Source: a virus
Taxonomy: Duplodnaviria; Heunggongvirae; Uroviricota; Caudoviricetes
DNA length: 64,000 bases
Strand: one strand, 5' to 3'
Virus record (IMG/VR): IMGVR_UViG_3300032007_000006
Span: 185,360 to 249,359 of that record
Under the pieces are notes generated by a model. The model was not told where the DNA came from, ran no database searches, and saw only the letters and a program-made list of their open reading frames with translations. Shown piece by piece: positions 3,553 through 53,670 of this stretch. The first letter of the stretch is position 1. Each line of letters opens with the position of its first letter. The position numbers and the translations under genes were made by a program.

Positions 3553-3569
3553 ATGTATCCTCCTAATGC

Positions 3570-3601: not shown

Positions 3602-3629
3602 AGCATTTAATACGCGATGCTAGCGAAGT

Positions 3630-5063: not shown

Positions 5064-5072
5064 CTCATTCTC

Positions 5073-10288: not shown

Positions 10289-11846
10289 TCCCAATTCCAG
10301 CACGTTCAAGAATGCAGTTATAGTTGGAAAGCGTCTTGAGCATGAACTTCATCGGATTGATGTCGCCACCAACGATGTACTGGAAGAGAGTCGGACTAAA
10401 TCCAGACACAAGAATGGTGCCATATTCATCTCTGGACACAGGAACGTTGGCCTGTCTGGAGTTGACATTCCAGAACACCAGCGTAGGACGCTCAACCTTG
10501 GTCTTCTTGAAGAGAAGGTCAATCTTGTGGAAGAGAGTCTTCTTCCTTGCATCCAGCTTCTTCTTGGCCTCTTCCCGAGTATTGGAATACCACCACTCCT
10601 CTGGATTCTCTATCTCATCAAACTCCATGTCGGAGATGATGACCAGATTCTTCGGACAGTCCTCTGGATTGGAGTCCTGTGCCAGAGAAATGTAGAGCTT
10701 GAACATCTTCTCGATGTTGGTGTTAAGACCACCATGCCTTTCCATCTTCAAGAAACGGCTGTAGAGCGAATCTTCAGGATCCAGCTTGAGACATTCTGGA
10801 TGCTGAGAGAATGTAATCACGCAGTTCTTGAAAGGTCCCTTGGCCTTCTCAGCAAAGTACATTGCAAGAGACGTGGAAACAAAGATGGGTACAGGCTTGG
10901 AAGAGTTGTTAGCCATGCTTGTGCAATAGGTGCCATACATGGAGCCAGACACGTCTGCAACCACGAGAGAGGAAGTACCATTTGTCCAGTCGGGAAGAGC
11001 CTTCCACATCTCTTCAACGACAGAATCCCTTGCATTTACATTGCATTCCTTGCGTACAAGATCGTATGGCATCAGAGTGCCAGAGTTGATCTTCTCCTTT
11101 CCCTTGGAAACATTCTCAATGAATGCCCCATACCTCTCGCCGTCATGCTTCCAGAAGGCCTGACGATACTTGAGACCAGCACCAGAGGGAAGCTTGGAGT
11201 ATTCCACTTCATCCCACTTGCCTTCGGAGATCTTCTGCTCCACAACATTGATATACTTGCGGAGAGGAACGATCAACTTGCGAGCATTCCTATCGGAGCC
11301 ACAGCAGGCTTCAGAAATGCGTCTGGCATGACGGATGGCCTCTGGATTGTGCCTGTTGTTGGCCAGAGGAAACCACTTTGCAAGCAGGGAAATGCTCTTT
11401 TCCTCTTCCATGAGATCCCAGTCTTCCTTGATCTGATTCTTGACCACCCTGCAGGCCACGTCAAACCATTCAGGCTTTGCATCGTGCATGATGGAAAAGA
11501 GGTCGGACCAGCGGCCATACTCTCCAATCTCCTTGAAGAGGGACTCAACCACTTCTTCATCATCAATCTTATTCAGAAGAAACTTGAAGCACCTCACGAA
11601 GGAAGAGCGTTCGCCCATGCCGTTTCGCACGTCACGCAGAAAAAAGAGATTCTTGACTGCAAGAGGAAGGTCCTCATTGAGAGCCTTGGCATACAGCTCC
11701 TCAATGCGCGGATCTCCTCGCATGCCACCAGCCATGGAGAAAAAGTCGAGATTTGCGTCCGTGGTTGTATTAAGACAAACTGCACCATTTTCGGTGAAGG
11801 TCTTGGTGGCCTCTTCGGCAAAGTTCTGGGCGAAGGTATTCATCAT
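10281..11846 (-). CDS. vWA-domain protein (MIDAS DVSGSM) with an N-terminal TROVE/Ro60-like region (DUF2828-like), 521 aa
   Basis: LVVADVSGSMYG matches the vWA MIDAS D-x-S-G-S motif; a 444-aa antisense ORF was rejected. Confidence 0.55.
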   Translation of the reverse strand: MMNTFAQNFAEEATKTFTENGAVCLNTTTDANLDFFSMAGGMRGDPRIEELYAKALNEDLPLAVKNLFFLRDVRNGMGERSSFVRCFKFLLNKIDDEEVVESLFKEIGEYGRWSDLFSIMHDAKPEWFDVACRVVKNQIKEDWDLMEEEKSISLLAKWFPLANNRHNPEAIRHARRISEACCGSDRNARKLIVPLRKYINVVEQKISEGKWDEVEYSKLPSGAGLKYRQAFWKHDGERYGAFIENVSKGKEKINSGTLMPYDLVRKECNVNARDSVVEEMWKALPDWTNGTSSLVVADVSGSMYGTYCTSMANNSSKPVPIFVSTSLAMYFAEKAKGPFKNCVITFSQHPECLKLDPEDSLYSRFLKMERHGGLNTNIEKMFKLYISLAQDSNPEDCPKNLVIISDMEFDEIENPEEWWYSNTREEAKKKLDARKKTLFHKIDLLFKKTKVERPTLVFWNVNSRQANVPVSRDEYGTILVSGFSPTLFQYIVGGDINPMKFMLKTLSNYNCILERAGIGNV

Positions 11847-15856: not shown

Positions 15857-17404
15857 TTAGTCCTTGTTCATCCATATGTCAATGACCGTCTTGACCTTTT
15901 CCCATATCCGCTTTTCGCTAATTCGCCCTTCGTATTCCATCATGTACCATTCCTCAATTCTTTTCATGATGTTCTTCACGTCAAAGTTCTTGTTCATGAA
16001 CATCATGCGGACATTGGCATCAACAATGTCCCTATACTGCTTTTCAAGAAAGGCCATTATCATGCTGGGAGTGGACGAAGCGAACCAGTTCCTTACAAAT
16101 GTCTTGGCTTCATCTTCATCTTCATCGTTTATTCCCTTTCCAATGACTTTGAAGAACTCCCTTACAAGATCATCCAGTTCTTCTACACTGTCTTTTTCGG
16201 CAGATTCACTAGTCTTTTCAGTGTTCCAGTTGATTTTCCTGCTGGTTGGAGAAAGATCGAACCCAAACACTTCAGTCTGACAAACGTCTCCATCTTCATC
16301 GAGATACTTCACGACATAGACATTGGAACCGTAGTCAAAAGCCATCACCTGAACAACGTTTCCGTTGTAGAGTTCCGCATACTCTCCAGATTCAAATTTC
16401 CTTTCAGGCTCATTTCCATCGGAAATACGCTCAAGCAGATGATCCTTCTTGATCCACCATTCAACAGGTTCATACCCATCAAAGAAGCGGATCTTGTATG
16501 GATATCCAATTTCATCATTGGAATCAACTACAATCACGCGACCAATGACATTCTCTTCATCGGAATTTTCAAAGTCATATTCCTCAAGATTGGCTTTAAT
16601 CAAGTCTCCAACGCCAATTTCAGGAGTAAATTCTTCATCCTTCCAGACGGTTCTTTCCAGAGGAGCATTGATTTCCGAAACGACCTTGTAGCGGCAGCAT
16701 CTGGCCTTCGCATTGCCATAGTCATTCGGAATGGAAACAACGTCAGCCGGATTAATCTTGACCAGAACAAGCCTGTCGCCTAGACCAGAAAAAGACTTGA
16801 CATAGGAATAGGCGCAGAAGTGAAGTCCAGAAGAGCAGGTGTTGTTGGGATCATCATCAACTTCATTGCGTGGCATTTCCACTATAGCTCCAATGGAATT
16901 GTCAAACTTGCCAGTATGCTTATCCTTGAAATTGCCAGAAACTACCTTGTAGGCCATGATATCGCCATCTTCGGCGATTGTGAATCCACCTTCCTCCTGA
17001 CATGCTTCAATGAAAGCCCAAAGCTGATTTCTAATGCGATAGGAAGGATTTTCCCTCATCTTCCGCACGAAATTCACCATTGGATCAAGAGGCAGTCCTT
17101 CATCATGCATGGACTGTATCTGCCTGCAGAGAGAGCCATATATCGGTTCCCCGTCAATGTAGATGGTGTCGCTTCCGAAGCTGATGCCAGAACCTTCAAT
17201 ATTGGCCTTTTCGCACCACTCGCGAATTTCTTCATTATTCTTCACGTTAAGGACTTCCTTCAAGTCCTTCCAAGGAGCCTTTTTCTTGATAAGTTCAAGA
17301 ATTTTTTCACGCTTTTCGGAATCAGAATCGCCAATAAGCCAGGTTCTTCCTTCTCCACACACAAACAGCATGCTGCCAGTAGACATGTAGGTATATTCTT
17401 CCAT
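15857..17404 (-). CDS. rIIB: rIIB-like protein (about 280-aa rIIB core plus an about 230-aa C-terminal extension), 515 aa
   Basis: Core GLHFCAYSYVKSF...LVKINPADVVSIPNDYGNAKARCCRYKVV resembles the conserved rIIB C-terminal block as I recall it; AAGGAGG SD before MEEYTYM. Confidence 0.45.
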   Translation of the reverse strand: MEEYTYMSTGSMLFVCGEGRTWLIGDSDSEKREKILELIKKKAPWKDLKEVLNVKNNEEIREWCEKANIEGSGISFGSDTIYIDGEPIYGSLCRQIQSMHDEGLPLDPMVNFVRKMRENPSYRIRNQLWAFIEACQEEGGFTIAEDGDIMAYKVVSGNFKDKHTGKFDNSIGAIVEMPRNEVDDDPNNTCSSGLHFCAYSYVKSFSGLGDRLVLVKINPADVVSIPNDYGNAKARCCRYKVVSEINAPLERTVWKDEEFTPEIGVGDLIKANLEEYDFENSDEENVIGRVIVVDSNDEIGYPYKIRFFDGYEPVEWWIKKDHLLERISDGNEPERKFESGEYAELYNGNVVQVMAFDYGSNVYVVKYLDEDGDVCQTEVFGFDLSPTSRKINWNTEKTSESAEKDSVEELDDLVREFFKVIGKGINDEDEDEAKTFVRNWFASSTPSMIMAFLEKQYRDIVDANVRMMFMNKNFDVKNIMKRIEEWYMMEYEGRISEKRIWEKVKTVIDIWMNKD

Positions 17405-17598
17405 TACTTGCCCGCCTCCTTTATTTTCTTGTAGAGTGCCCGCAGAATTGCTTCGTCTTCTTCCGATACGTCGTTGCACATGGCCTGCATGAAGTCAACG
17501 AGATCATCGGCAGAATCAAAATTAGCAAGATCAACAGGCCTCTGGCTTTTTGCAGGCGTTATCACAGTTCCATCAACCTGATACTTGTCTTTGTCCAT
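17404..17598 (-). CDS. Hypothetical small protein (64 aa)
   Basis: ORF only. Confidence 0.35.
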   Translation of the reverse strand: MDKDKYQVDGTVITPAKSQRPVDLANFDSADDLVDFMQAMCNDVSEEDEAILRALYKKIKEAGK

Positions 17599-26137: not shown

Positions 26138-28339
26138 CTATTCGCAGCAGTATTTTAAATTCCAGCCAACATTGCTGGAAACGTATCTTTCTACAAAATG
26201 CACCGCATCTTTCGTGGCAATGTCTTTATGCAGACCAAATCCGTCATGCATAGGAACGCCAAATCCATATTTTGTTTCCCTAACAGGCATGCCTTCCATT
26301 TCAAGACCATTCATTATGTTCCATAAAAGCATGGATTCAGCCCCTTGATATATATGGGCCAGCTTCTGTCCAAAGGTAACTCTTCTGGACTTTATGTCCA
26401 TCTCCTCTCCCCACGAATTGACAAGTACAGGACGTCCTCCTGCATATTTCTTCATTTTTCCAAACAGAAAATTTCCACCATTCTGCATTTCATTCCAGAG
26501 CGCCGTCACTCTTTCATTTGAAGCCCAGGACGCAATCTGCATCAATCTTATTGGATCGCTTATTCCAGCCACAAGAGCCGAACCAGGAGAATAATGATAG
26601 GTGTCATACAGAGTTGGCATTATTCCATAAGTCTCAACAAGCCAATTCCATTCAGCGGCATTGACAATCCGATCAATGTTCATTGTGCATCCATATCCAA
26701 TCATTGTCAAGAAGTCCTTGACATTTTCCAATGAAATGTCATGGCTTTCATCAACAAGAGACTTTCTGTAGGAATCCTTGTCCTTGACCATTGCATCTAT
26801 TTCTGGAGTATTCTCTGAATAGCCGTACGAATCCAGCAGGCTCTTCATTATTGAAAATACCGCACAGTTGAGATCTATTGAAGAATAGGATGGGAAAACC
26901 TTTTTTCTAAGCCATTTTGGAAACATTTGAACGCAGTTTCCATAGCCATAGAATCTTCCATGCGTTCTTCTTCTAAAATGAAGTCGCATCCATCTTCTGC
27001 CTTCATCCTTCAGTCCATTAGCCAGCATTCCCTCAAGCTGACCAGCAATTTGAGAATTCAATGGTCTTTCTAAATCATTCAATGCATTTTCAATGCCATC
27101 TGGATCAAACTCAACGTTGATCTGCATTTCCGACGTTCCAATGAACTGTGGCTTTGGCTTTTCCTCAATGAGAATGAGAGGCAAATCTACCCTTTGATGT
27201 CCATTAAATTCGCTTTCGTGCATTTCTTGAAGAGTCATTCCTCTTTTAGATCCAATGAAGAGACCTCTTGCTATTTTTTCTATATGCGTAGTCCAGAAAA
27301 GCCTTTCTTCGGCAATGTCTTGTCCATGAATTTTGAAAGCTTCGGAAAATGATGAATATTTTTCAACTGGAGCAGTGGAATCATTCAATGGCCTAAGACC
27401 AGTCCATTCCTTCCATACTTCAGGAAAATCCTTTCTTGCATTGATTTTTAGTCCCTTCTTTAATTTTCCATTGGAATGATTGACATAGCATTGAATGAAC
27501 CATTCCTTTAAAACTCTTGCATCAAGTTCAATAAAACGAATCTGCCCAAGTCTAGCCCTATGAACCAGCCATTTCATTGCAGATGTGGCCGTATAAAGAT
27601 TCTTTCTTCCTATCCAGTGCTTTTCCTGCTTCCAGACATTTGAAATGCCGTCAAATCTCAAAACCGTCTTTGTAATGTTGTTTACTTTTTCATGCACTCT
27701 AACATATGAACCAGATATGTTTCCATTAGACCATCTTTCCTTTGGAGTCATTTCCTGTGATTTTTCAATAAACGCCAAAGTGTTGTAGCTGCTGGCATTA
27801 TATTCGGATAAAAGTCTTGAATCCTTTATGAGATGCCTGCATCCCTTTCCCTCAAGTCCACTGAATGGAAACAGTATGCTTCTAGGAAGACAGTTTCCAA
27901 GAGAAAATGGAGCATCTATAAATGATGGTTCCCTGCAGGCCAAGGCCAAGGCAATGGTTGAAACCATGGCCATGGATACAATTGCATTTTTTATCTTCCA
28001 CTGCTGCCACGTTTTTGTATATCCATGAGAATCCAGAACCCGCTTCAAATCTTCATAAAGACATTCCTTTTCCATGAATATTTCAGGGCAGATGAATATT
28101 CTTGTACATCCACTTTCACCAACGTCTCCCTCCATTAATGGATCAAAAAATGACTGTGGACGCCATCCCTCTGGAATATCGTTTTTCCATTTTTCTACCG
28201 ACATAAGCCAGTCTTTCTCGGAAGGAAGAAAGGCCTTACTCGGAGATTCTTCCAATGCGGAAAGCTTCTTCCGAAGACTTTCAATTGTCCAAAGTTCAGC
28301 ATCATGATGCTGAACTAACGATGCAACGACACTAGACAT
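26138..28339 (-). CDS. Large hypothetical protein (733 aa), function unassigned
   Basis: Long uninterrupted ORF in the gene block; only weak, unconvincing polymerase-like fragments (see the rejected list). Confidence 0.5.
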   Translation of the reverse strand: MSSVVASLVQHHDAELWTIESLRKKLSALEESPSKAFLPSEKDWLMSVEKWKNDIPEGWRPQSFFDPLMEGDVGESGCTRIFICPEIFMEKECLYEDLKRVLDSHGYTKTWQQWKIKNAIVSMAMVSTIALALACREPSFIDAPFSLGNCLPRSILFPFSGLEGKGCRHLIKDSRLLSEYNASSYNTLAFIEKSQEMTPKERWSNGNISGSYVRVHEKVNNITKTVLRFDGISNVWKQEKHWIGRKNLYTATSAMKWLVHRARLGQIRFIELDARVLKEWFIQCYVNHSNGKLKKGLKINARKDFPEVWKEWTGLRPLNDSTAPVEKYSSFSEAFKIHGQDIAEERLFWTTHIEKIARGLFIGSKRGMTLQEMHESEFNGHQRVDLPLILIEEKPKPQFIGTSEMQINVEFDPDGIENALNDLERPLNSQIAGQLEGMLANGLKDEGRRWMRLHFRRRTHGRFYGYGNCVQMFPKWLRKKVFPSYSSIDLNCAVFSIMKSLLDSYGYSENTPEIDAMVKDKDSYRKSLVDESHDISLENVKDFLTMIGYGCTMNIDRIVNAAEWNWLVETYGIMPTLYDTYHYSPGSALVAGISDPIRLMQIASWASNERVTALWNEMQNGGNFLFGKMKKYAGGRPVLVNSWGEEMDIKSRRVTFGQKLAHIYQGAESMLLWNIMNGLEMEGMPVRETKYGFGVPMHDGFGLHKDIATKDAVHFVERYVSSNVGWNLKYCCE

Positions 28340-32887: not shown

Positions 32888-35371
32888 ATGCAGTCGCTAG
32901 AAACGCAAACCATAAAGCAAAGGGATTTTGCAATGCAGGTTTTTTCAAACAACGCTAGTTTTGAATCCAACATTAATGATGTCAAGGAATATACACTAGG
33001 TGATCCTAGAGTAATCTGCCGCATACTGTCCGACAATCTCTATTCAAACAAGATTGGAAGCATTGTGCGTGAACTGTCGGCCAATGCTCTGGACGCCCAT
33101 AGAATGGTTGGAAAGGAGAATGTTCCCTTTCAGGTATGTCTTCCTGGACTTGATGGACTTTTCAGAAAGGATGAAAGCGTCTTCTCCATTAGGGACTATG
33201 GTCCTGGTCTATGTGAAGAGGACATATACGCTCTTTACACTTCCTACGGTTCTTCATCCAAGCGTTCAGACAATAGTCAGATTGGTGGATTTGGCATCGG
33301 CTCCAAGTCTCCATTTGCCTATGCCGATATTTTCACGGTAACTTCGTGGAACTCTAGATTGATGTCGAAATACATCTGCTTTCTAAGTGGAGACGGTTCT
33401 CCCTGCATAAAGAAGATTGAAAGTGGAGTGTCGGACGAACCTTCTGGAATGTTGATTGAAATCGGCGTAAAGAACGCTGAAGATGCCGAGATTTTCAGGA
33501 ATGAGTGCAATATTCAGTATCCTTTCTATGACGTTGTTCCGAATGGAGGACCATGGAAGAAGAATATTCCAGTATATGAAAATGAATACGGAAAGATATA
33601 TTCTACGGATAATCGTGGATATTCCAGGAGTGGATGGAGTGGATGGCACAACTGGTCCGTGCTTTATGGCCATGTGAATAATTCCATCTATAGATTGGCC
33701 TGGGAATCTTCAGATAATTCCGACTACATGGGAATGAATTGTGGACGTATTGGATACATTACGCTTCCCTTTTTAAATTCCATCTGCATATTGAATATTT
33801 CTGGAACGGACATAGATCTTTCTGCTTCCCGAGAAGATCTGGCCTTTACAGAAAAAACTAAAACAACCATCATAGAGACCTGGAAGAAGTTTATTTCAAA
33901 AGTCTGGAATGAAATATTTTCCGACATCAATGAAGAATGCAAGGTTTCGAGATTTGAAACCTTCTATAAATGGAAGGAAAAGAAATTCAATTTCTCGGCT
34001 TTCAAGGAATGGATAGCCTCTGGAAGGGGAACTGTTGAAGCTATTGAAAAGTATGACGTAAAGACGAATTGTGGCGGAAAATATCTTCCGATATTCATTG
34101 TTGAAAGAGACGCTGTATGGCCAATGCTTGAAAATGGTCTTCGTGGATATGAAGCCACAATGTCATCTTCAAGATATGGAATTATATCCATCAACAAGAT
34201 AGTCAAGTCAATTCTAGCGTGTGGAAGAAGTGAAAACACCCTTGTATCTACTCTAAAAACAAATGCCAAGTCATTGATTGACGTATCCGGAAACAACGAA
34301 GCCTGTCTTTGGGAACTGCTGATAGAAGACAATATTGATTTTAAGCTGATTTTCTTCAACAAGGATGCCACCTTTGCCGCAATGAAGGAAAAGGCAAAGG
34401 AAATCATTGAAAAATCAACTACTCGTCTCTTAATCCACATGTATGCCATTGATGATGCGGAAATGAGAAAGAAGATAGTTGAAGCGTATGGCTGTCCAAA
34501 GGATGAAAGATGCATTGACATCCACATTGCAAAAAAGAAGAAGAATGTTGATGCCATTGCATATTCTGCTCGTAAAGAGCAGGTAAAGGCTAGAGTGAAC
34601 ATGGATGCCTTTGGCTATCAAAGAGGTGCATGTGGAATAGATGGAACTGAAGTGCTTCAGCAGATTCGTTCAAATCTAAAAGAAGAATGGATGACAAGAG
34701 ATGAAATTGAATCTCTAATGTCTTGTGGAGCGATTGTTGTCGTTACAAATGGAATATCGGTTTCCGAAAAGTACAACAACTGGCAGATTCCATTTCTTTC
34801 ATTCATTGGATGTATCTGTCCTTCAAAACTAAAGCGTCCCAGCAAATGGATTCTGCTGAATGAGGTCTCCTACCAGAAGCTACTGAATAGTGGATTCAAG
34901 CCTCTGGAAAAACTACAGGCTGTAAAGACAATCATGAACATACTAAAGGAGTGTGGTGTTGAATATATTGACTTTCTGAAATGGATGGTAATTGAGTCAT
35001 TGGGAGACAGTTTTGGATTTTCAAGACTTGAAGACGCTTGCGACTTTTCCATTACAATTGCTCCAAAGCATCCAGAAAGTGCCATTTCAAAGGCCATAAT
35101 GACATGGAGTCACGTCAAGAATACGCTGTCCTCGAAAATGAGTGGACTTAGCAGACTTCCATATAAAATGATTGAAGGAGAGCATTCATTCTATGTGGAT
35201 GAAGAGCGGAAGGATCTGATTCAGACACTCAAGAACGATTTGGCCTGGAACGAAATCAATGAATGGATAAAGAAGAATCCAATTGTTGAATTTGCCAGGC
35301 GCGTTTATGCTGATGATTCAAGAAAGAATCGAAACGTTGAAATACTGAATCACTATCTGAAATGGGACTAG
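32888..35371 (+). CDS. rIIA: rIIA-like protein with an N-terminal GHKL ATPase domain (827 aa; alternative start at 32933)
   Basis: PRVICRILSDNLYSNKIGSIVRELSANALDAH (N-box), IRDYGPGL (G1), IGGFGIGSKSPFAYADIFTVTSW (G2) match the T4 rIIA N-terminus ([42 protein letters not shown]). Confidence 0.78.
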   Translation: MQSLETQTIKQRDFAMQVFSNNASFESNINDVKEYTLGDPRVICRILSDNLYSNKIGSIVRELSANALDAHRMVGKENVPFQVCLPGLDGLFRKDESVFSIRDYGPGLCEEDIYALYTSYGSSSKRSDNSQIGGFGIGSKSPFAYADIFTVTSWNSRLMSKYICFLSGDGSPCIKKIESGVSDEPSGMLIEIGVKNAEDAEIFRNECNIQYPFYDVVPNGGPWKKNIPVYENEYGKIYSTDNRGYSRSGWSGWHNWSVLYGHVNNSIYRLAWESSDNSDYMGMNCGRIGYITLPFLNSICILNISGTDIDLSASREDLAFTEKTKTTIIETWKKFISKVWNEIFSDINEECKVSRFETFYKWKEKKFNFSAFKEWIASGRGTVEAIEKYDVKTNCGGKYLPIFIVERDAVWPMLENGLRGYEATMSSSRYGIISINKIVKSILACGRSENTLVSTLKTNAKSLIDVSGNNEACLWELLIEDNIDFKLIFFNKDATFAAMKEKAKEIIEKSTTRLLIHMYAIDDAEMRKKIVEAYGCPKDERCIDIHIAKKKKNVDAIAYSARKEQVKARVNMDAFGYQRGACGIDGTEVLQQIRSNLKEEWMTRDEIESLMSCGAIVVVTNGISVSEKYNNWQIPFLSFIGCICPSKLKRPSKWILLNEVSYQKLLNSGFKPLEKLQAVKTIMNILKECGVEYIDFLKWMVIESLGDSFGFSRLEDACDFSITIAPKHPESAISKAIMTWSHVKNTLSSKMSGLSRLPYKMIEGEHSFYVDEERKDLIQTLKNDLAWNEINEWIKKNPIVEFARRVYADDSRKNRNVEILNHYLKWD

Positions 35372-38585: not shown

Positions 38586-39800
38586 CTATTCAGCAGGAAT
38601 GGATGCTTTTTGAACGGTAGGAGCTGCAGCGTATTCAACATTGAGAGTTGGATATTTGGCGGCATCATATGCTACAAGGCCACCCTTGTCGCGGTAGACA
38701 TAGCAGAGCTGAGTGCCGATGCCAGTCTGGCAGTAGTCTGCGGCAGTCTCGCCTTCAGCAAACTGAATTGGTCCCTTTGGTCCACGGCAATTCTTGATGT
38801 TGATCTTGATTTTTGCAGGAGCAAAGAGATTGTTGGTGTCGGCTTCGGCTGCACTCTTTGAAGTGTAGTCCTGGCAGATGCAGAGGCCAGCCCAGTCATT
38901 CTTGGACTCGGCAGTGGCAGTCTCGCCTTCCCAATGCTCAATCACGCAGTTCTCGAAGTTAATGGTGACGTTGGTGGCATTGGTGATGTTGGAAAGACGA
39001 AGTACATTTGACACAGTGTCGAACCAGCAGTTCTTCACGGTGATGACGGAATTGTTGGCGCATCCATAAACATTGATGGCATTGTTGGTGAACTTGCCAA
39101 GAAGCTGGCAGTTTTCAAACACAATGTTCTTGGTGTCGGTTCCGCCCCAAACTTCAAGGCCATTGTAGAGATAGTTGACGCCAACCAGATTGTTAGCATC
39201 GGCTCTATTGGCATACACTTTGACGTCCTTCATGGCAACAGACTTTGGATTGCATCCATAAACCTTCAGTGCACTGTTGCTGCTGTTGTTGACTTTTGCA
39301 ATGCTTCCATCGCGGTTGTCAAGAACGACGCCTTCGGCAACGATTGGACCATCTGACTTGAGAGTGACAGCGACCTTGTCTGAAATATTGGCATCATAAA
39401 GGGAAATGCTCTTGCCGGTGACAGTCTGAGCGGAAGCGGCAGGAATCTGCACTTCCTGGCCATCTACAATCTGCGTTGTGGTGGCTTTGGATTCAAATGT
39501 GCCACCAATGACGACAGTTGGCTTCTCAACGTCCGTATTGATATCAAGAGCGGCGCCATTGTAGGATGGCTCAAGGCCTTTGCCTTCATCAAGAGTCTGA
39601 AGCATGGCGCAGGCGCCTGCTCCAGTAAGCACATACTCATTGCCATCAATGGTTGCTGAGGTGGATTTTACGTTGCCAAGCATTTTGGCGAACTTTTTGG
39701 AAATGGTTTTGGAGAGACCAAGATCGTCAACAGGAAGAACGTTGTTTTCCTGGCCAATATTGGCAACGAAGTTTTCAACTAAAGTGGTATTAAGTGCCAT
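38586..39800 (-). CDS. Right-handed parallel beta-helix (pectate-lyase-like) protein (404 aa); putative tail spike, depolymerase or fibre component
   Basis: Periodic N..NV.G/NC repeats (VYGCNPKSV..., NAINVYGCANNSVITVKNCWFDTVSNV, NVTINFENCVIEH). Confidence 0.5.
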   Translation of the reverse strand: MALNTTLVENFVANIGQENNVLPVDDLGLSKTISKKFAKMLGNVKSTSATIDGNEYVLTGAGACAMLQTLDEGKGLEPSYNGAALDINTDVEKPTVVIGGTFESKATTTQIVDGQEVQIPAASAQTVTGKSISLYDANISDKVAVTLKSDGPIVAEGVVLDNRDGSIAKVNNSSNSALKVYGCNPKSVAMKDVKVYANRADANNLVGVNYLYNGLEVWGGTDTKNIVFENCQLLGKFTNNAINVYGCANNSVITVKNCWFDTVSNVLRLSNITNATNVTINFENCVIEHWEGETATAESKNDWAGLCICQDYTSKSAAEADTNNLFAPAKIKINIKNCRGPKGPIQFAEGETAADYCQTGIGTQLCYVYRDKGGLVAYDAAKYPTLNVEYAAAPTVQKASIPAE

Positions 39801-45214: not shown

Positions 45215-45619
45215 ATGACTGTTGAAGAATATGAAGCCGAAGCCTTGAATGATCTTCAAATTGACGTAACAAAACTGGAAGACTGTGCCAGAATTTTAGG
45301 CCTGAAAAAGGCTAAATGGGCCAGATATCTTTATGATGAGGAATGCATCTTAGCGGAAACGGAAGAACGTCTGAATGAGATGTACCGCGACAAGTTTCAT
45401 TTTTATATGTATGAATTTGATCAGAAAATAGAGAAAAAATCCATAGAGATATACGTCAAGGGAGATCCTACATACAAGGAAGCCGAAAAAATGTACAAAA
45501 AGCAGAAGGCCAAGCTGAAGCTTGTGGAACAGGTCATTGCGGCGCTTGACAAGCAGAGTTTTTCAATGAACATTATCTTGAAGCATATGGCCTGGGAATC
45601 TGGCGCTTCTGCAACATAG
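45215..45619 (+). CDS. Hypothetical protein (134 aa)
   Basis: ORF only. Confidence 0.45.
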   Translation: MTVEEYEAEALNDLQIDVTKLEDCARILGLKKAKWARYLYDEECILAETEERLNEMYRDKFHFYMYEFDQKIEKKSIEIYVKGDPTYKEAEKMYKKQKAKLKLVEQVIAALDKQSFSMNIILKHMAWESGASAT

Positions 45620-45646: not shown

Positions 45647-45913
45647 ATGAATTTAATATACAGGGAATATCGCAAATGGCTTGATGGCATTGAGGCCAAC
45701 ATCAGAATGAACTTTCCTGGATGGAATGTGGAACTGCGAGAGCATCGCAAGGGAATATTTGCTCTCTACTTCGGAAATCCATTGGCTAGTCAATGTGACA
45801 GAACCTTCTATCTCAACATGGAGCAGGTAGAATTTCTTGAAACGGCCAGAGAACTTGATCTAGCCAAATTTTTTGAGGATGGCACGTTCTGTCGTCATCC
45901 ATTGGGAGCGTAG
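45647..45913 (+). CDS. Hypothetical protein (88 aa)
   Basis: ORF only. Confidence 0.4.
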   Translation: MNLIYREYRKWLDGIEANIRMNFPGWNVELREHRKGIFALYFGNPLASQCDRTFYLNMEQVEFLETARELDLAKFFEDGTFCRHPLGA

Positions 45914-45932
45914 AGTGATTGGAATCCATAAG

Positions 45933-46958
45933 ATGAATGAGTCCTATGCCAGGATGGAATATGATGAGGACAAGGAATTAAGTCTCATATACAATGCTCT
46001 GAGCTACTATCCAGAAAACTACAGGTTTATGCCAGCATTCAAGAATGGCATGTGGGATGGACAGATTCATCTTATGGATGCCTCTACTGGAGCATTTCCC
46101 CTTGGCTTGACAAGACATGTTCTCAAGACGGCCAAGGAGCTTGGCATCGAGTTCAAAGTGGACTCTGAAGTGGCCAGATGCTTTGTAGACATGGGATTCA
46201 ATGAGGCGCACTTTCAGTCATTTCTGGACGCCACAAGGTTTTTCTCTGGAGGAAAGGAGATATTCCCAAGAGACGATCAAATTGAAGCAACCAGACGCGC
46301 ACTGGAAAGCAGACGATGCATCAATCTCTGTCCCACTTCATTCGGCAAGTCGCTGTCCATTACAATGGAATGCCTCTATCTTGTTCAGCAGGGAAAGACT
46401 TGCATCATTGTCGTGCCAACAAAGGGACTTGTGGAGCAGTTTGCGAATGATATCAAGGACTATGCCACCAATGAAAAGGGAGAACTTGAGTCATGGATGC
46501 CGAAGCTTCAGTTGATATATGGTGGAAAAGACAAGGATCTCAAGGATGACACTCAAATCTGCATATCAACCTGGCAGTCTCTGTACAGCATCTGGAAAAG
46601 CGACAAGAAGTACATGAACCAGTTTGACTGCATATGCTTGGATGAGTGTTTTGATGGAGAATCGTTAGTAGCAATGGCTGATGGTTCTTGTAAAAAAATA
46701 AAAGATATTGTCGTTGGAGATAAAATCTTAAACTATTCTGAAGATAAAAAGATTTTTAAAGAAGATATTGTTGAATCTGTACATAAAAATCTGTATGTTT
46801 CAATGAAAGAAAAAATGCTTGAATTGTTGTTTGATAATGGAACTATCATTCAATGCACAGCAAATCACAAGTTTTTAACAAAAAGAGGATGGAAGCGAGC
46901 AGATGAATTAAATGGAGATGATGAAATTGTAGAGCATGTCGCACCATCGACCATATAG
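45933..46958 (+). CDS. SF2 (DExH, UvsW-like) helicase N-terminal extein fused to a split-intein N-fragment (IntN about 103 aa)
   Basis: Helicase motif I CPTSFGKS, Ia, motif II LDE then the intein CFDGESLVAMADGS (Block A) ... TANHKF (Block B), then a stop. Confidence 0.7.
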   Translation: MNESYARMEYDEDKELSLIYNALSYYPENYRFMPAFKNGMWDGQIHLMDASTGAFPLGLTRHVLKTAKELGIEFKVDSEVARCFVDMGFNEAHFQSFLDATRFFSGGKEIFPRDDQIEATRRALESRRCINLCPTSFGKSLSITMECLYLVQQGKTCIIVVPTKGLVEQFANDIKDYATNEKGELESWMPKLQLIYGGKDKDLKDDTQICISTWQSLYSIWKSDKKYMNQFDCICLDECFDGESLVAMADGSCKKIKDIVVGDKILNYSEDKKIFKEDIVESVHKNLYVSMKEKMLELLFDNGTIIQCTANHKFLTKRGWKRADELNGDDEIVEHVAPSTI

Positions 46959-47962
46959 CAAAATTAAAGAATCTTCTAATGCAATTTTAGAAAGTAACAA
47001 TCAATACACAAGAATCGAATTTATCAATCGCGAAAGAATCGAATTAAACAATGGATTAAAACTGACTGGAACAGAAAAACAAAAGTTTTTAAAGATAATT
47101 ACACATTTAAAAACTGAAATGTGGAGAGAAAGTGTTGACTATATTGTAAATGGAGATTTTAATGAACGATATGAAGAAATTAGAAAGAAAGTCAACTATA
47201 AGAATAATTCTGAATTATTAAAACATCGAATAGCAACAGGACAATTAGATCCGAGAACATGCTTAGGAAAAGATCCTTGGAATAAAGGAAAGCATTATAA
47301 AAGAAAAGTGCCGTTTAGTGATATTGAACGACAGCGTCATAGAGAATGCAAGCTTGGAACAAAAAATCCAATGTATGGTGTGTTACATTCTCAAGAATAT
47401 AAGAAAATCGTATCGGATAGAATGAAAGAAAAGATTTTAAAAGGAGAGTTTACACCCAATACAAACAATAGATATACACATTTTGATGTAACATACAGAG
47501 GAAAGGTATTTCGTTCTTCATGGGAAGCAGTGTTTTATTGCAAATATCATGAAACTTATCAGTATGAAAAATTAAGGATTCCGTATACCTTTGATAATGA
47601 AAATCACATTTATATTGTTGATTTCATTAATGAGCAAGATAAAATCGCTGTAGAAATAAAGCCATCTAGCATTCTAGAGCGTAATAGCAAAGAACAAGCC
47701 AAATTAAACGCTTTAAAGACATGGTGCATCAACAATGAATATAAATTATGGGTTGTCGATGAAAATGACATTAGAAATATTGTATATGAATTGAATAGTT
47801 TAGAGGAATTTGACTACTCCACACAGCAAAAACTAATAAAGCAATTTGGAGTTAAAAATGAGACTTCTAGCTGTTAAAGAGATTGAAAAACCCAATACGG
47901 TATATAATCTTTCTGTAAAAAATGATCACAACTATATTGTTAATGGTGCAGTAGTTTCAAAC
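46647..47962 (+). mobile_element. Split intein plus free-standing HE cassette fracturing the helicase gene
   Basis: IntN 46647-46955, HE 46936-47877, IntC 47846-47962; strongly AT-rich relative to the exteins. Confidence 0.65.
46936..47877 (+). CDS. Free-standing homing endonuclease (PD-(D/E)xK C-terminal domain) located between the split-intein halves, 313 aa
   Basis: HIYIVDF...IAVEIKP (D...E.K), GTKNPMYG motif shared with the second free-standing HE; different frame from both helicase fragments; AT-rich. Confidence 0.55.
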   Translation: MSHHRPYSKIKESSNAILESNNQYTRIEFINRERIELNNGLKLTGTEKQKFLKIITHLKTEMWRESVDYIVNGDFNERYEEIRKKVNYKNNSELLKHRIATGQLDPRTCLGKDPWNKGKHYKRKVPFSDIERQRHRECKLGTKNPMYGVLHSQEYKKIVSDRMKEKILKGEFTPNTNNRYTHFDVTYRGKVFRSSWEAVFYCKYHETYQYEKLRIPYTFDNENHIYIVDFINEQDKIAVEIKPSSILERNSKEQAKLNALKTWCINNEYKLWVVDENDIRNIVYELNSLEEFDYSTQQKLIKQFGVKNETSSC

Positions 47963-48790
47963 TGCCATCGAGGCAGTGGTCGTGCGATTCAGGCTGTAAT
48001 GACTTCAGCAAAGGACGTTGGAATTCGTACAGGATGGACTGGAACTCTGGCCAATGAGCAGATAAATGAAATGCTCATTCGTGGACTTTTTGGAGAGCCG
48101 AGACAGATTGTCACCACGATTGAATTGATGGACAAGAAAATAGTGGCTCAGCTGAAGATAAGCATAATGAAACTGATTTATCCTGATGGATGGGGAAGGT
48201 CATTCAAGCTGCTGGACTATGCAAATCAATGCAAGTATTTTGAGGAGCTGCAGGAGAGAACGGATGCCATAGCAGGAATGGCTTTGAACAGAAACGAAAC
48301 TGGCTTGATGCTCTACAGAAAGATTGCCCATGGAGAAGCAATCTTTGAAGCATTAAAACGTATGGCTCCCGAAAGAAACATATATCTTGTCCATTCTGGC
48401 CATTTTCAGAGAAATGAAGAGAAGTTCAAGTCTTTTGAAGACTTAAAGCCGTTGCTTGAGCAGGAAAAGGATGCAGTGCTTGTCGCAAACTATCAGCTGG
48501 TCGGCACTGGCGTATCAATCAAGAACCTTCATTTCGTGATGTTTGCCGCTCCAATCAAGTCCTACATCACCACAATTCAGAGTATTGGACGTGGTCTTAG
48601 AGTGTCAGCCACGAAAAAGAGCGTTGAACTGATAGACATAGTGGATGACATGTCCTATAGGGCCAGAGTGAACATAGTTCAGAACTATGCCTTGAAGCAT
48701 TATGCCGAACGATACAAGATATACGCGGCAAATGGATTTGACTGCTCCATGGATTCCATGCACATAGAGCCAAAGGAAAAGACATTCTAG
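47846..48790 (+). CDS. Split-intein C-fragment (IntC 39 aa) fused to the helicase C-terminal extein
   Basis: VYNLSVKNDHNYIVNGAVVSN (Blocks F/G) then +1 Cys; CH completes motif II LDE|CH; motif VI QSIGRGLR. Confidence 0.7.
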   Translation: MELKMRLLAVKEIEKPNTVYNLSVKNDHNYIVNGAVVSNCHRGSGRAIQAVMTSAKDVGIRTGWTGTLANEQINEMLIRGLFGEPRQIVTTIELMDKKIVAQLKISIMKLIYPDGWGRSFKLLDYANQCKYFEELQERTDAIAGMALNRNETGLMLYRKIAHGEAIFEALKRMAPERNIYLVHSGHFQRNEEKFKSFEDLKPLLEQEKDAVLVANYQLVGTGVSIKNLHFVMFAAPIKSYITTIQSIGRGLRVSATKKSVELIDIVDDMSYRARVNIVQNYALKHYAERYKIYAANGFDCSMDSMHIEPKEKTF

Positions 48791-48798: not shown

Positions 48799-48828
48799 AG
48801 GGAGCCTTTTGGCTCCCTATATTTTTAC
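48799..48828. terminator. Bidirectional terminator (agggagccttttggctccct plus atattttta)
   Basis: 8-bp stem, T-rich tail. Confidence 0.6.
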
Positions 48829-49379
48829 TTTATCTTGAATGAAACCAATTTTCCATCCTTGAACTTGGCTCGAAGTTTTCCCGCCATGGAGCAGGAGATA
48901 TTAATTCTTGAAGTGCCATCATCCTTCTTTTTCTTGAGATAGATGTCCATTAGCATGGACTTGTCCATCTGCGTCTTAAAGATGCTTTCCTTGGGAGCGT
49001 TTTCATCCTCCCTCCATTCGATAAAGTCTTCAGACTGAAGCATCTTGGCCAGATCATTGACAGCGGTGTCAATAGTTTCTCCAATTTCAAGGACTTCCCT
49101 CAGATTCTGAAGGATTCCAAACCAGTGAAGAGCAAAGGATTTCTTTCGCTCATAGTCATTAAGGATTTCAAGGATTTTTTCGTTTGGATTGTTGACATTT
49201 GTCTGCATTTCGGAGGCCAGCTTGTCTCCAGCGGCAAACAGTTCAATCAAGTCATTTTCAGACTTTTCCTTCCAGAATGTTTCTGGATGGTTGCTCTTCA
49301 TCCAGGCCTTCAAGGCTCTGGCAGAGGCTGTTGGATCATGTACTAGGGCTTCTGTGAGCCATTTCTGGAATGAAGTCAT
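48825..49379 (-). CDS. Putative internal protein with N-terminal CTS MTSFQKWLTE (184 aa)
   Basis: CTS-like N-terminus; AGGAG SD. Confidence 0.5.
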   Translation of the reverse strand: MTSFQKWLTEALVHDPTASARALKAWMKSNHPETFWKEKSENDLIELFAAGDKLASEMQTNVNNPNEKILEILNDYERKKSFALHWFGILQNLREVLEIGETIDTAVNDLAKMLQSEDFIEWREDENAPKESIFKTQMDKSMLMDIYLKKKKDDGTSRINISCSMAGKLRAKFKDGKLVSFKIK

Positions 49380-50766: not shown

Positions 50767-53670
50767 CTAGTTGATGTACTTGAAGTATATGTCGCCATCA
50801 TTGCCACCAGACGGATCACCTGTTCCATAGCGTATTGTCGCTCCAGCAGTAATTGCTCCAGAATTTAGATATGTCAACTGATGTGCTCCGCCAACATTTG
50901 CATTTGAAGCAGTCAATGTTCCACCATTCATGTACATTAACTGCGTTGTAGAACCAACTGTATCTCCAGATGCAGTTAATGTTCCTGCATTGAGATATAT
51001 CGGTTTCTTTGCACTTCCAACTGTATCTCCAGATGCTGTTATCTTTCCACCACTTAGATATACTGGATTTTTGGCATTGCCAACATTGGACGTTGATTTT
51101 GTAAGTTTTCCTGAACTTAGGAATATAGGCTCTGTTCCGGAACCAACTGTTGTTGTGGTCTTTGTCAGTGTTCCTCCAGTCAGATATATGGGTTCGGTTT
51201 CTGAACCGACTGTGGATGTAGATGCAGTTATTGTTCCACCTGTCAGATATACTGGCTTTATTCCTGAACCAACTGTTGAATTTGAAACACTAATTGCTCC
51301 ATTGTTGAGATATACTGGCTTTATTCCGGAACCAACTGTTGATGTTGATGCCGTTGCAACGCCTTTATTGAGATAAATCGGAACAATTCCAGAACCGATT
51401 GTGGAGAGACCAAGTTTTGATGCAGTAGTTGCTATATGATTAAGCTGCTTTTTGTCGCCGCGAATATAGTATATTTTTCCAGTGAATTCATTGGAAGCAA
51501 TGCGTCCGTGACCAATTGTTTCGTATATTTCGTTGATGCAATGTGCATTGCTTGTAGATACATACTGTCCGCTTGCATTTGCTTCCCAGCGAATGTCATT
51601 TTTGATGTCATAGACAATGGCATCCTTGATGTTTTTAGAATTCAGAGCGGCAATGGTAACTTCAGCATCTTCAGTTGATTCGCAGACGTATACGCCTTTT
51701 ACCATATAGTCGGCCTGCCAGGCCTGATCTGCTGGATTTCGCTTGCTTTTTGCTCCAAACAGCATCATTCCTTCATCCATCATGTGGATGACGTTCATTG
51801 GATTTGTTGCTGGATCAATTGGAATAAGTGGAGTCGGTTCTGGAACTGGATCATTCTGACGTTCTATGTATTGAACATAGGATTCTCCAAGAAAGTCCGT
51901 TATATTTTTTATTTCTTCAAATATGGAATTTCCTACGAGACTTTTCAGTCCTCTGCAAAGTTCCTCTGGTGCCATGGAACCAAATAAAAGTTCCTTTAGA
52001 TTGTGTGGACCAGATTTTGGTTCATCTTCATCAACGCATACTGGAGCTGAATTAAACAAGTCAATAAGATCTTCTCCAATGGCATCTTTAAGAAGAATTG
52101 TTTCCTTTAGCAAGGAGCCTGTAGACATTCTTTTCCAGATGCTGCACATTGTTTCGTTGACTGCCAGATCTCCAAATAGAAGATCTCCAATGTCTACTGG
52201 ACTTGGATCAGATGAAGATATTTTCCAGCTGTCATTCTTGCTTTCTTCAAGAAGACACGTTTTTGTTTTAGATGCAGATTCGCTGGAAGAAACTGAATAT
52301 GTTACGTCCTGATAAATTCCTGGAACAATTGTATCGTATGTTGCTTCAATAAGACTCCAGGAATTTCCAGAATATGCAAAAAGGCCGGTCTTGCTGCATT
52401 CAAATTCCGAATCAAAGAATCCAGAGTTGACATTCAGTTTTACAGCAATGCATGCGGCATCTCCTTCCTTTGGTGAAGGAACCATTGTTCTTATTGGAGA
52501 TGGATTTCCTCCTCCGCCATTTAAGGCATACTTGATGAATTCCTGCTTGATAAGCGATTCCATTGTTGTAACGCTGGAATTGCCAGAAACAGTCTTTATT
52601 GCTGCAGTAGATGAAGGATTTTCAGCCTGCTGTGCAGTAGTTGACGTTAGTGTTGATGGATAGAGATACTGCTTGGAATTGTATGTAGGAACTGGAAGAT
52701 TATACTCATTTTGAGAATGGCCTTTATAGTCATATCTCGTTTGATTTAATCTGGCCCAGTTTCCATTTAAGCGTCTCCAAAGCTGCTGTCGTTTAGTTGT
52801 AGATTCAACCATGCATCTTTTATTAGTGTCTGTTAGCCACTCATAAAATGGAAGACCAATGCGGTCGATTATTTTGACTGTTTCTGTAGCCAGTCCACCA
52901 GTTGTAAATCTATCCCATACTTCTGAAAAATTTGCATTGCCATTAAAGAAAAACTGCCGCAGTCCTCCAATTGGACGACTTCCTTGAACAGGAGACAATT
53001 TGTCCAGCCAGTCATAGAAGGCTGAACTAAAAATGTCTTCTATGACATGCATCAATGAATTAGCCAGTCCTTGTGAATCTCCATGCAGATTGCGACAGGC
53101 TCGTCCAAATATGTCATCTGTATCTGCATCGGTTCTATCTCTTGCACCGAATAGCATTTCGGCCAGATCGGCTGGTTCTCCAATGCTTGTACCAGTTTTT
53201 AGCGTATTATCTGGATTATGAGTCTTGTTGTAAAAGTAGGAATAAAGACTTCCCCAGGTATTGATATTTCTTTGAAGCAGCTTGTCTATGCTCTGTACAA
53301 GACCAAACTTGTGGGCCTTTATTCTTTTCGTTTCTGTGCCATCAAACGTTGTGCCAGTTCCACCAACCTTTGAAACTCTTGAGTTTTCTGGAACATCTGT
53401 TCCATCTGGCTTTTTCGTGGCGATCTCCTCTTCAAAGAATGGAGATCTCTTTCGCCCAGGAATTGGAGTAGTCCATGCAATAGTAACTGGAGTATCATGC
53501 GTTTCGGTTAATCCGAGCGTGTATATAAGATCATTAATTCTCTGCCACCATTCCCCCATAATGTTTGTATAGTCAAGTGGAGTGACGGCATATATTTCCT
53601 TCAATTGAGTGCATCCTTTAATGAATTCGCTCAATCTAGATTTGGTTGAATTATTTCCTGCGTCAGGCAT
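50767..53670 (-). CDS. Tail fibre protein (967 aa) with nine C-terminal 19-aa repeats
   Basis: Repeats VGSG.KP.YL..G..T.S.ST x9 at about 50800-51400; TTGTAAATA 22 nt upstream. Confidence 0.6.
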   Translation of the reverse strand: MPDAGNNSTKSRLSEFIKGCTQLKEIYAVTPLDYTNIMGEWWQRINDLIYTLGLTETHDTPVTIAWTTPIPGRKRSPFFEEEIATKKPDGTDVPENSRVSKVGGTGTTFDGTETKRIKAHKFGLVQSIDKLLQRNINTWGSLYSYFYNKTHNPDNTLKTGTSIGEPADLAEMLFGARDRTDADTDDIFGRACRNLHGDSQGLANSLMHVIEDIFSSAFYDWLDKLSPVQGSRPIGGLRQFFFNGNANFSEVWDRFTTGGLATETVKIIDRIGLPFYEWLTDTNKRCMVESTTKRQQLWRRLNGNWARLNQTRYDYKGHSQNEYNLPVPTYNSKQYLYPSTLTSTTAQQAENPSSTAAIKTVSGNSSVTTMESLIKQEFIKYALNGGGGNPSPIRTMVPSPKEGDAACIAVKLNVNSGFFDSEFECSKTGLFAYSGNSWSLIEATYDTIVPGIYQDVTYSVSSSESASKTKTCLLEESKNDSWKISSSDPSPVDIGDLLFGDLAVNETMCSIWKRMSTGSLLKETILLKDAIGEDLIDLFNSAPVCVDEDEPKSGPHNLKELLFGSMAPEELCRGLKSLVGNSIFEEIKNITDFLGESYVQYIERQNDPVPEPTPLIPIDPATNPMNVIHMMDEGMMLFGAKSKRNPADQAWQADYMVKGVYVCESTEDAEVTIAALNSKNIKDAIVYDIKNDIRWEANASGQYVSTSNAHCINEIYETIGHGRIASNEFTGKIYYIRGDKKQLNHIATTASKLGLSTIGSGIVPIYLNKGVATASTSTVGSGIKPVYLNNGAISVSNSTVGSGIKPVYLTGGTITASTSTVGSETEPIYLTGGTLTKTTTTVGSGTEPIFLSSGKLTKSTSNVGNAKNPVYLSGGKITASGDTVGSAKKPIYLNAGTLTASGDTVGSTTQLMYMNGGTLTASNANVGGAHQLTYLNSGAITAGATIRYGTGDPSGGNDGDIYFKYIN

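Follow-up and report, generated by a model that had tools for sequence, protein, structure and literature searches.

The closest described relatives of the locus reported here are the fractured genes found at ocean metagenome loci by Dassa, London, Stoddard, Schueler-Furman and Pietrokovski in 2009 (PMC2677866), where the listed hosts are gp41-1, NrdJ-1, IMPDH-1, DnaE, NrdA, ligase and terminase. In these loci the break lies at the canonical endonuclease-insertion loop of the intein, leaving an N-terminal half (IntN) of 88–105 amino acids and a C-terminal half (IntC) of 33–54 amino acids. At 15 loci the downstream open reading frame (ORF) begins inside the 3' end of the endonuclease gene, with an overlap of 6–69 bp. 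The endonucleases are of the GIY-YIG or the Vsr-like (EDxHD) type, the latter family having been described by Dassa et al. (PMC2677866) and by Taylor et al. The window considered here is the whole of a 64,000-nucleotide stretch of a Caudoviricetes virus (IMG/VR virus record IMGVR_UViG_3300032007_000006, positions 185,360 to 249,359 of that record). In it, a gene for a UvsW-like superfamily 2 (SF2) helicase is interrupted by the two halves of a split intein and, lying between them, a gene for a free-standing endonuclease, and the arrangement is probably a real and functional member of the fractured gene class.

The likeness to the published loci extends to several details. As in those loci, the break falls at the canonical endonuclease-insertion loop; the intein halves, at 103 and 35 amino acids, fit the published ranges, and the 20 nt by which the endonuclease gene overlaps the downstream ORF compares with the published 6–69 bp. 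There are also differences. UvsW is not among the hosts listed in PMC2677866, the window endonuclease is of a canonical TnsA-like PD-(D/E)xK type rather than GIY-YIG or Vsr-like, and the upstream hairpin of the Dassa loci was not detected in the window. For the window locus, moreover, empty-site and contiguous mini-intein alleles are also available. The class of arrangement has thus been known since 2009, whilst the combination of a UvsW host with a TnsA-like endonuclease appears not to have been described before. No description of a UvsW split intein, or of the intein of phage S16 discussed below, was found in the accessible literature, although most subscription journals lie outside such a search and absence is not proof.

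Two further systems invite comparison. The Ssp and Npu DnaE inteins are split at a similar position into similar halves (~102 and 36 amino acids), with Cys as first residue (Cys1) and Cys at position +1, and Npu DnaE ends in ...ASN/C, much as the window intein ends in VSN/C. The cyanobacterial halves however lie far apart in the genome, have no endonuclease gene between them and are cellular, where those of the window belong to a phage; the window intein is ~24% identical to Npu DnaE in an illustrative alignment. The nrdA gene of phage Aeh1 is reported to be split by a free-standing endonuclease without an intein, its halves assembling non-covalently (PMC3045599; Friedrich et al. 2007). The two loci are alike in that an endonuclease gene splits a conserved T4-like phage enzyme into two ORFs whose products have to reassemble, and unlike in that the window locus has full intein halves with all nucleophiles, predicting covalent ligation.

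The reading favoured here, to which a probability of about 85% is assigned, is that of a functional, mobile element made up of a split intein and an endonuclease, from which the helicase would be restored by trans-splicing. The features of the locus are listed below in window numbering, which is used throughout; all ORFs of the uvsW locus are on the + strand.

45904–45908, + strand: GGGAG resembling a Shine–Dalgarno sequence, 6 nt 5' of the probable uvsW GTG start (read from the sequence)
45915–48790, + strand: uvsW gene, interrupted
45915–46646, + strand: uvsW N-extein, with UvsW_N and motifs I to the first half of II, ending ...CICLDE (Pfam, 2OCA alignment)
46647–46958, + strand: IntN, 103 amino acids and TAG, with Cys1 (TGT, 46647–46649), block A CFDGESLV and block B TANHKFLT
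46936–47877, + strand: endonuclease gene, 313 amino acids, free-standing and in its own frame
47848–47851, + strand: Shine–Dalgarno sequence GGAG, 6 nt 5' of the ATG of IntC and the C-extein, within the 3' end of the endonuclease gene (read from the sequence)
47858–47962, + strand: IntC, 35 amino acids (MRLLAVKEIEKPNTVYNLSVKNDHNYIVNGAVVSN), with blocks F and G and the terminal Asn
47963–48790, + strand: uvsW C-extein, 275 amino acids and stop, with the +1 Cys (TGC, 47963–47965) and motifs III–VI including QSIGRGLR
47963–48004, + strand: 42 nt directly 3' of the insertion point, a candidate region for recognition by the endonuclease or for co-conversion
48799–48818: G+C-rich, terminator-like hairpin, AGGGAGCC-TTTT-GGCTCCCT, between uvsW and a convergent gene at 48825–49379

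The ORFs were listed over 44.5–50.5 kb, and three in succession on the + strand, each in a different frame, account for the locus. ORF1 ends at 46958 with a TAG stop (46956) and has candidate starts at TTG 45873, GTG 45915 and ATG 45933; ORF2 runs from 46936 to 47877 (313 amino acids, TAA stop at 47875); ORF3 ends at 48790 and has candidate starts at TTG 47846 and ATG 47858. The endonuclease ORF shares 23 nt with the IntN ORF at one end and 20 nt with the IntC ORF at the other. The helicase half of ORF1 closes with ...NQFDCICLDE and passes directly into IntN, which reads CFDGESLVAMADG...TANHKFLTKRGWKRADEL...PSTI followed by TAG. ORF3 opens with ...VYNLSVKNDHNYIVNGAVVSN (in its full form (L)ELKMRLLAVKEIEKPNTVYNLSVKNDHNYIVNGAVVSN), continues as CHRGSGRAIQ... 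and later contains QSIGRGLR (motif VI). The insert thus begins with the Cys1 codon at 46647, closes with the final codon of IntC at 47962, is 1316 bp long and lies inside the motif II sequence LDE/CH. Its G+C content is 29.9%, against 45.4% for the N-extein, 44.2% for the C-extein and 42.1% for the whole window.

A preliminary description of this DNA had placed the helicase halves in separate ORFs with a free-standing 313-amino-acid PD-(D/E)xK endonuclease gene between them in a third frame, had ended the upstream ORF with a 103-amino-acid IntN bearing blocks A and B and a stop codon, and had called the insert AT-rich relative to the exteins; translation and base composition agree with it on all of this. 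Two of its start codons have to be revised. The helicase had been taken to begin at ATG 45933, but GTG 45915 is the most likely start, because GGGAG lies 6 nt upstream of it and relatives of 519 amino acids start with MIGIHKMNES: the intein-less proteins P0121, P0122 and P0124 all begin at the equivalent codon. IntC had been given 39 amino acids, which corresponds to the TTG at 47846. The ATG at 47858 is most likely the true start, giving 35 amino acids, since GGAG (47848–47851) precedes it by 6 nt and IntC is 35 amino acids long in all homologues examined.

The identity of the host enzyme, proposed earlier as a UvsW-like SF2 helicase, is confirmed by domain content, alignment and neighbourhood. 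The N-terminal half in ORF1 matches the Pfam families UvsW_N (PF21241; 6e-11), DEAD (3.6e-12) and ResIII (1.2e-12), and the C-extein matches Helicase_C (3.3e-4) and phrog_9690 (6.7e-65). When the insert is removed, the resulting 513-amino-acid product aligns with the sequence of the T4 UvsW crystal structure (2OCA) over residues 16–505 with E=6e-63. A UvsY homologue (PF11056) is encoded just upstream, at 45215–45619, and the locus thus combines UvsW_N, the DExH core motifs I–VI and the recombination-gene neighbourhood of a T4 UvsW-type SF2 helicase. The flanking ORFs are colinear halves of one enzyme, the spliced sequence being 97% identical to the uninterrupted 519-amino-acid protein P0121, and PHROGs holds separate families for the two pieces, phrog_16259 for the N-half with IntN and phrog_9690 for IntC with the C-half. 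The 2OCA alignment is ungapped across NDECHLATGKSI / LDECHRGSGRAI (NDECH/LDECH); as there is no gap at motif II, it is precisely between Glu and Cys of DECH that the gene is broken, as had first been proposed. No near-identical DNA came up when the locus was compared by megablast with 50,697 phage records, relatives being found at the protein level only.

The intein pieces are recognisable separately and together. IntN matches the Pfam families Hint (6.9e-10) and Intein_splicing (1.4e-8), at profile positions 1–93 only, whilst IntC matches Intein_splicing at profile positions 125–155. Joined, they align end to end with solved mini-inteins, over residues 4–138 in the case of Npu DnaB (4O1R), and also match the Ssp DnaB and Spl DnaX inteins with E of ~1e-7. 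The split point falls in a loop that is continuous in the contiguous relatives P0144, P0145 and P0150 (...EIISCNNDMKLIRRTEIEKP...), and it is the canonical endonuclease-insertion and split position. C1, H74 and T78 are invariant in the alignment of the intein family. Re-inspection of the splicing residues found all those of a class 1 intein in place: C1, T71-A-N-H74 in block B, the terminal N35 of IntC, and the +1 Cys. The same residues (Cys1, Thr/Ser-x-x-His of block B, terminal Asn, +1 Cys) are kept at every locus examined from which both halves were recovered.

Across its relatives this intein is most often found split. An exhaustive HMMER search with IntN returned 293 cluster representatives at E<=1e-10, and IntN stands at the extreme C-terminus in 60 of the 76 representatives that are at least 45% identical to it; the split form therefore dominates the UvsW intein family. 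Members have an IntN of ~97–103 amino acids, an IntC of 35, Cys1 and a +1 Cys, and include many diverged variants, contiguous ones among them. The locus had been called a rare fractured gene, a name which is correct; the UvsW intein family, however, is not rare. Proteins of 480–716 amino acids with a C-terminal IntN were considered as evidence of a different host gene, but none was found: five of the eight scanned have UvsW helicase domains and the rest have only intein or endonuclease domains. Several of these eight show signs of a second, upstream intein of the LAGLIDADG type together with the same C-terminal IntN. A Hom_end_hint match starts at ~amino acids 132–141 of the UvsW N-halves P0249, P0255 and P0263; domains of the homing-endonuclease or LAGLIDADG kind are matched by P0263 and P0278. 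It would seem that uvsW is a hotspot at which inteins insert.

The three-ORF layout recurs well beyond the window. Among independent metagenome assemblies it is found in L004, L005, L008–L010 and L011–L015, the endonucleases of which are respectively 97%, 50%, 43% and 35% identical to that of the window, and 114 blocks of the collection have an index entry for the L011-type endonuclease. The layout is present, too, in the finished genomes of two cultured phages, Salmonella phage S16 (gp114/gp114.1/gp115; NC_020416) and Proteus phage PM2 (gp180–182), and in the Prevotella Lak megaphages (Lak-B2), where a genuine TGA closes the IntN ORF. A separately translated endonuclease between intein halves is found at no fewer than eight diverged loci, and every part of the arrangement has significant Pfam, PHROG or PDB matches, the TnsA-like match of ORF2 being borderline; the arrangement is therefore not due to chance. 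The relative frames vary among the loci, and in some a stop and a 28-nt spacer separate the ORFs, so that a coincidental pair of frameshift errors cannot explain the layout; its occurrence both in independent assemblies and in the genomes of cultured phages likewise argues that it is not a frameshift artefact. Whether the stops were real, or concealed a contiguous intein, had been put forward as a test of the preliminary description, and the stops and restarts at homologous positions in independent genomes answer it: the stops are real.

S16, PM2 and Lak belong to phage lineages different from that of the window. In them a homologous intein occupies the same DE/CH site (NDE/CFDGDTL...GNHKFLT...stop, then MRLKSIKEIKKPDVVYNLHVKTNHNYFANGALAHN/CH) and the endonuclease between its halves is homologous. 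Between S16 or PM2 and the window the inteins are 56–58% and the endonucleases 37–41% identical, the exteins only 31–36%. Homologous loci have been in GenBank since the deposit of phage S16, and public records label the successive pieces of the S16/PM2 type 'DNA helicase', 'hypothetical protein' and 'DNA helicase'. In Lak-B2 (L017, MK250021; ~2803–6050) the locus reads IIDE/CCHPDTL...GNHKVLT...TGA, followed by the endonuclease and an IntC ending ...NDLCISN/CHHVG. Eight TAG codons stand in frame in its endonuclease ORF and one in its IntC; the Lak element therefore depends on the recoding of TAG by the phage, which argues for a long residence in that lineage.

ORF2 comprises an N-terminal DNA-binding region, a NUMOD3 element (amino acids 140–157, ~47353–47406) and a C-terminal PD-(D/E)xK nuclease domain (amino acids ~185–275, ~47488–47760). 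Its Pfam matches are to NUMOD3 and Tn7_TnsA-like_N (PF08722), the latter borderline, with a score of 26.6 bits against a gathering cut-off of 26.5, and the precomputed matches of its relatives are marked 'weak'. D229, E240 and K242 are invariant across 51 homologues, whilst E197, within RSSWE, is nearly so; the protein thus has the conserved acidic residue, the Asp and the (D/E)xK of a restriction-endonuclease-like fold, here TnsA-like PD-(D/E)xK. In the alignment used for structure prediction of the endonuclease, two rows from GenBank loci were left out. No PDB chain shows sequence similarity to ORF2 at E<=1, and the EDxHD motif is absent, there being no invariant His among the homologues; ORF2 therefore does not belong to the EDxHD/Vsr-like family. 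It nevertheless shares with I-Bth0305I, a member of that family (PDB 3R3P), the order of an N-terminal NUMOD-type DNA-binding region and a C-terminal nuclease, differing in its D...ExK signature. To I-Ssp6803I, a PD-(D/E)xK enzyme, it has no detectable sequence similarity at the same threshold, and unlike TnsA it is without transposition partners. The N-terminal half varies among homologues, with duplicated modules or Zn-ribbon-like CxxC pairs, which fits a modular region for DNA recognition. Homologues of 410–515 amino acids had been considered as possible fusions of intein and endonuclease, but have duplicated or Zn-ribbon N-terminal DNA-binding modules instead.

Relatives of the nuclease domain are found in 48 of the 50,697 deposited phage records. 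In Yersinia phage TG1 (L022, NC_028820; 1552–4401) and at the metagenome locus L016 (2824–6217) they lie between the halves of the gp17 terminase, at Walker B (IYIDE/C...), and both loci have split-intein halves. There the intein is split at a non-canonical position, with an IntN of ~41 and an IntC of ~107 amino acids ending ...ESHN/CAF; such an odd division into a short IntN and a long IntC was noted for the terminase locus by Dassa et al. (PMC2677866). The same nuclease domain adjoins terminase genes in T4-like phages of E. coli, Salmonella, Shewanella and Pseudomonas, where RefSeq names it 'endonuclease'.

Empty, mini-intein and fractured states of the gene all exist in related phages. A search with the spliced protein recovered the uninterrupted 519-amino-acid UvsW proteins P0121–P0124, which are 97%, 88%, 87% and 82% identical to it, and P0144, P0145 and P0150 (651–668 amino acids) have an unbroken mini-intein of this family, likewise at the DE/CH site. 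The DNA that encodes P0121 (L018) has an empty site; it is 97.5% identical to the window up to 46645 and matches again, at 95%, from 48005. The site is empty in L021 also. As for a homing gene, the element is present or absent at one precise site among close relatives, and its history is decoupled from that of its host gene.

The 42 nt directly 3' of the insertion point (2349–2391 of L018, 47963–48004 of the window) are an exception to the high identity, L018 and the window being only 50% identical there, and the encoded peptide reads DEVHRCVGRSLQSVVMS in L018 against DECHRGSGRAIQAVMTS in the window. It is L018 that is the odd one, since its patch is ~50% identical to L021 too, and L021, the 88%-identical relative, keeps DECHRGSGRAIQ. 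The change turns DECH into DEVH, so that the +1 Cys required by the intein becomes Val. The patch looks like the product of recombination or conversion at the presumed target of the endonuclease, and may represent an allele resistant to the endonuclease or incompatible with the intein, reflecting an arms race at the target site, or else a conversion tract.

Sequence divergence tells a similar story. Against L004, the closest intein-bearing relative and the reference for these measures, the insert has a synonymous divergence of 0.072, ~4 times lower than the 0.272 of the exteins (Fisher p=8e-9). The ratio of nonsynonymous to synonymous changes (pN/pS) is 0.25 for IntN, 0 for IntC (with zero nonsynonymous changes), 0.18 for the endonuclease, and 0 and 0.03 for the N- and C-exteins. 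Across distant lineages the helicase halves are 23–36% identical, the intein 55–58% and the endonuclease 36–45%, and the G+C content of the insert stays at 28–36% whatever that of the host gene (33–51%). A mobile homing element under purifying selection fits the results on polymorphism, divergence, selection and base composition taken together. They point to an element that is passed between phage genomes and all three of whose coding parts are maintained in working order.

Two observations concern the contiguous relatives. In P0145 (L019 3001–4977) a Met stands within the mini-intein exactly where IntC starts in the split form (...ISCNNDMKLIRRTEIEKP...), which would fit an intein that was once split, lost the endonuclease gene and became fused again; it may also be coincidence. 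Beside the UvsW gene with the contiguous mini-intein, L019 (6076–7560) and L020 (3953–5437) have a UvsX/RecA-like gene of 494 amino acids with faint matches to intein domains, and this gene may contain another intein.

The following mechanism is proposed for the window locus. The insert would have arisen when a free-standing homing-endonuclease gene entered a mini-intein at the canonical endonuclease-insertion loop and divided it. One transcript would span the three tightly packed ORFs and end at the hairpin at 48799–48818. From it the N-half with IntN would be translated from GTG 45915, and IntC with the C-half from ATG 47858 by means of the GGAG inside the 3' end of the endonuclease gene, the supply of a downstream start in this way having been proposed by Dassa et al. 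(PMC2677866). Translation of the endonuclease from ATG 46936 would be weak or coupled, since its start lacks a good ribosome-binding site and lies within the last 23 nt of the IntN ORF. IntN (103 amino acids) and IntC (35) would associate into one HINT fold and carry out class 1 trans-splicing, which begins with an N-S acyl shift at Cys1 and continues with trans-thioesterification to the +1 Cys, cyclisation of the terminal Asn and an S-N shift. The expected product is a UvsW of 519 amino acids with the DECH motif intact and the ligation junction ...YMNQFDCICLDE-CHR (...CICLDE-CHRGSGR). The endonuclease would cut the intein-less uvsW of co-infecting phages near the DE/CH codons, and recombinational repair would then copy the whole insert into the cut allele (homing).

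Several points weigh against this account. Splicing and DNA cleavage are both inferred from sequence, trans-splicing from the conservation of residues together with purifying selection. Inside the insert no promoter or hairpin signal rises above chance: nine promoter-like sites were found in the region scanned where 9.4 ± 2.5 are expected, terminator-like hairpins there occur only downstream of the uvsW stop, and the RNA fold around the endonuclease start is no better than that of shuffled sequences (z=0.79). The proposed route of expression is for this reason deduced from the packing of the ORFs, and the promoter and RNA-fold scans were set aside as evidence, whether for or against. Part of the reduction in synonymous divergence seen in the insert could be due to its differing base composition. 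The charge complementarity known from other split inteins is weak between IntN (net -4) and IntC (net +1), is inconsistent across homologues and was dropped as evidence. Finally, the penultimate residue is Ser (VVSN) and block F has Asn (VYNL), where the commonest intein consensus, common but not universal, has His and Asp; the active intein of Npu DnaE, for comparison, has ASN at its end. Relatives have S, A or H in the penultimate position, and the Asn of block F is present in every aligned member of the UvsW intein family, contiguous forms included. The two departures are taken as traits of the family rather than signs of decay, and they lower confidence in fast splicing but not in class 1 membership.

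Other explanations of the locus have to be set against these data. Frameshifts introduced by assembly or sequencing could have broken one continuous ORF, a large intein of the classical kind that includes the endonuclease as an in-frame domain, and since the three ORFs abut or overlap by ~20 nt, two indels could in principle fuse them. The same breaks however occur in independent assemblies and in the finished genomes of cultured phages, with differing relative frames; at loci where IntN and endonuclease do share a frame, a stop and a 28-nt spacer keep them apart. IntC moreover has an ATG and a GGAG of its own, the IntN ORF of Lak-B2 ends at a genuine TGA, and in the sets examined the endonuclease homologues are never fused to intein halves, so that this explanation is scarcely credible. 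The insertion might alternatively have inactivated uvsW, leaving helicase halves and intein pieces as decaying remnants. The two departures from the intein consensus could be read in this way, and T4 uvsW is not strictly essential. Decay is nonetheless very improbable given the absence of internal stops and the purifying selection on every part (pN/pS of 0 and 0.03 for the exteins, 0.25 for IntN, 0 for IntC and 0.18 for the endonuclease); furthermore the splicing residues are kept in lineages whose helicases are only 23–36% identical, and most members of the family are split.

It is also conceivable, though unlikely, that the role of the intein halves is confined to that of a dimerisation handle, the helicase working as a non-covalent complex without splicing, much as in Aeh1 NrdA, a reported precedent for split phage enzymes assembling without ligation (PMC3045599). 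With the break inside motif II, an intein of ~140 amino acids would then stay wedged in the ATPase active site. Docking by itself, moreover, needs neither Cys1, nor the block B His and Thr, nor the terminal Asn, nor the +1 Cys, all of which are kept wherever both halves were recovered, and the +1 position, which is A, C, V or T in intein-less relatives, is always Cys where the intein is present. ORF2, for its part, might be a nuclease with another role, whether that of a transposon-type TnsA, in defence or anti-defence, or in repair, which came to lie inside the intein by chance. Its TnsA-like match lies barely at the Pfam cut-off (26.6 against 26.5 bits), public genomes label the protein 'hypothetical' or simply 'endonuclease', and its homing role is deduced from sequence. 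Yet it invariably sits within a conserved phage gene, at a catalytic motif (DE/CH of uvsW, IDE/C of the terminase), its presence or absence goes together with that of the intein, the divergence of the insert is decoupled from that of the host gene, and neither TnsB, TnsC nor other transposition genes are adjacent. It also has a NUMOD3, which is typical of homing endonucleases (PMC2677866), and a role other than homing is accordingly improbable. The functional, mobile split-intein and endonuclease element remains the preferred reading.

On a wider and more tentative view, somewhat less probable than its converse, the UvsW motif II intein represents a large, undescribed family of natural split inteins together with an unrecognised lineage of homing endonucleases targeting the Walker-B / DExH codons (DE/C) of phage ATPases. 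The partner in this joint reading may be an enzyme composed of a TnsA-like PD-(D/E)xK domain, NUMOD3 and variable N-terminal modules which has repeatedly hit UvsW and the gp17 terminase. Were this true, the coexistence of empty, mini-intein and fractured stages would directly support the gene-breaking model of Dassa et al. Protein ligation makes use of natural split inteins, which are rare and sought after, and the UvsW family could supply new orthogonal pairs. The series of natural states is unusually complete and bears on gene fracturing and on the origin of split inteins, whilst a canonical PD-(D/E)xK (TnsA-like) enzyme is added to the types of endonuclease found in fractured genes. Recognition of the element also corrects the annotation of S16 and PM2, with their two 'DNA helicases' and a 'hypothetical protein'. 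Current understanding is not overturned by these results; their interest is moderate, as a source of split inteins and as a series illustrating the fracturing of a gene.

Besides UvsY and UvsW, the window encodes NrdD and proteins that are rIIB-like (15857–17479, - strand), rIIA-like (32888–35371, + strand) and of phrog_850, 'RNA-binding protein' (10281–11846, - strand). Many of its large ORFs (26138–28339, 38586–39800 and 50767–53670) have no PHROG or Pfam match. The source is a large, divergent phage of T4-like or jumbo type without a close deposited relative. Its anaerobic ribonucleotide reductase, NrdD (135–3134, - strand, 999 amino acids), has a contiguous intein at ~1674–2729 (amino acids ~136–487), with a LAGLIDADG endonuclease domain and the C-terminal junction ...NGIIGHN/CFNYS. 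One phage genome therefore holds both a classical large intein, in NrdD, and the fractured-gene split intein of uvsW.

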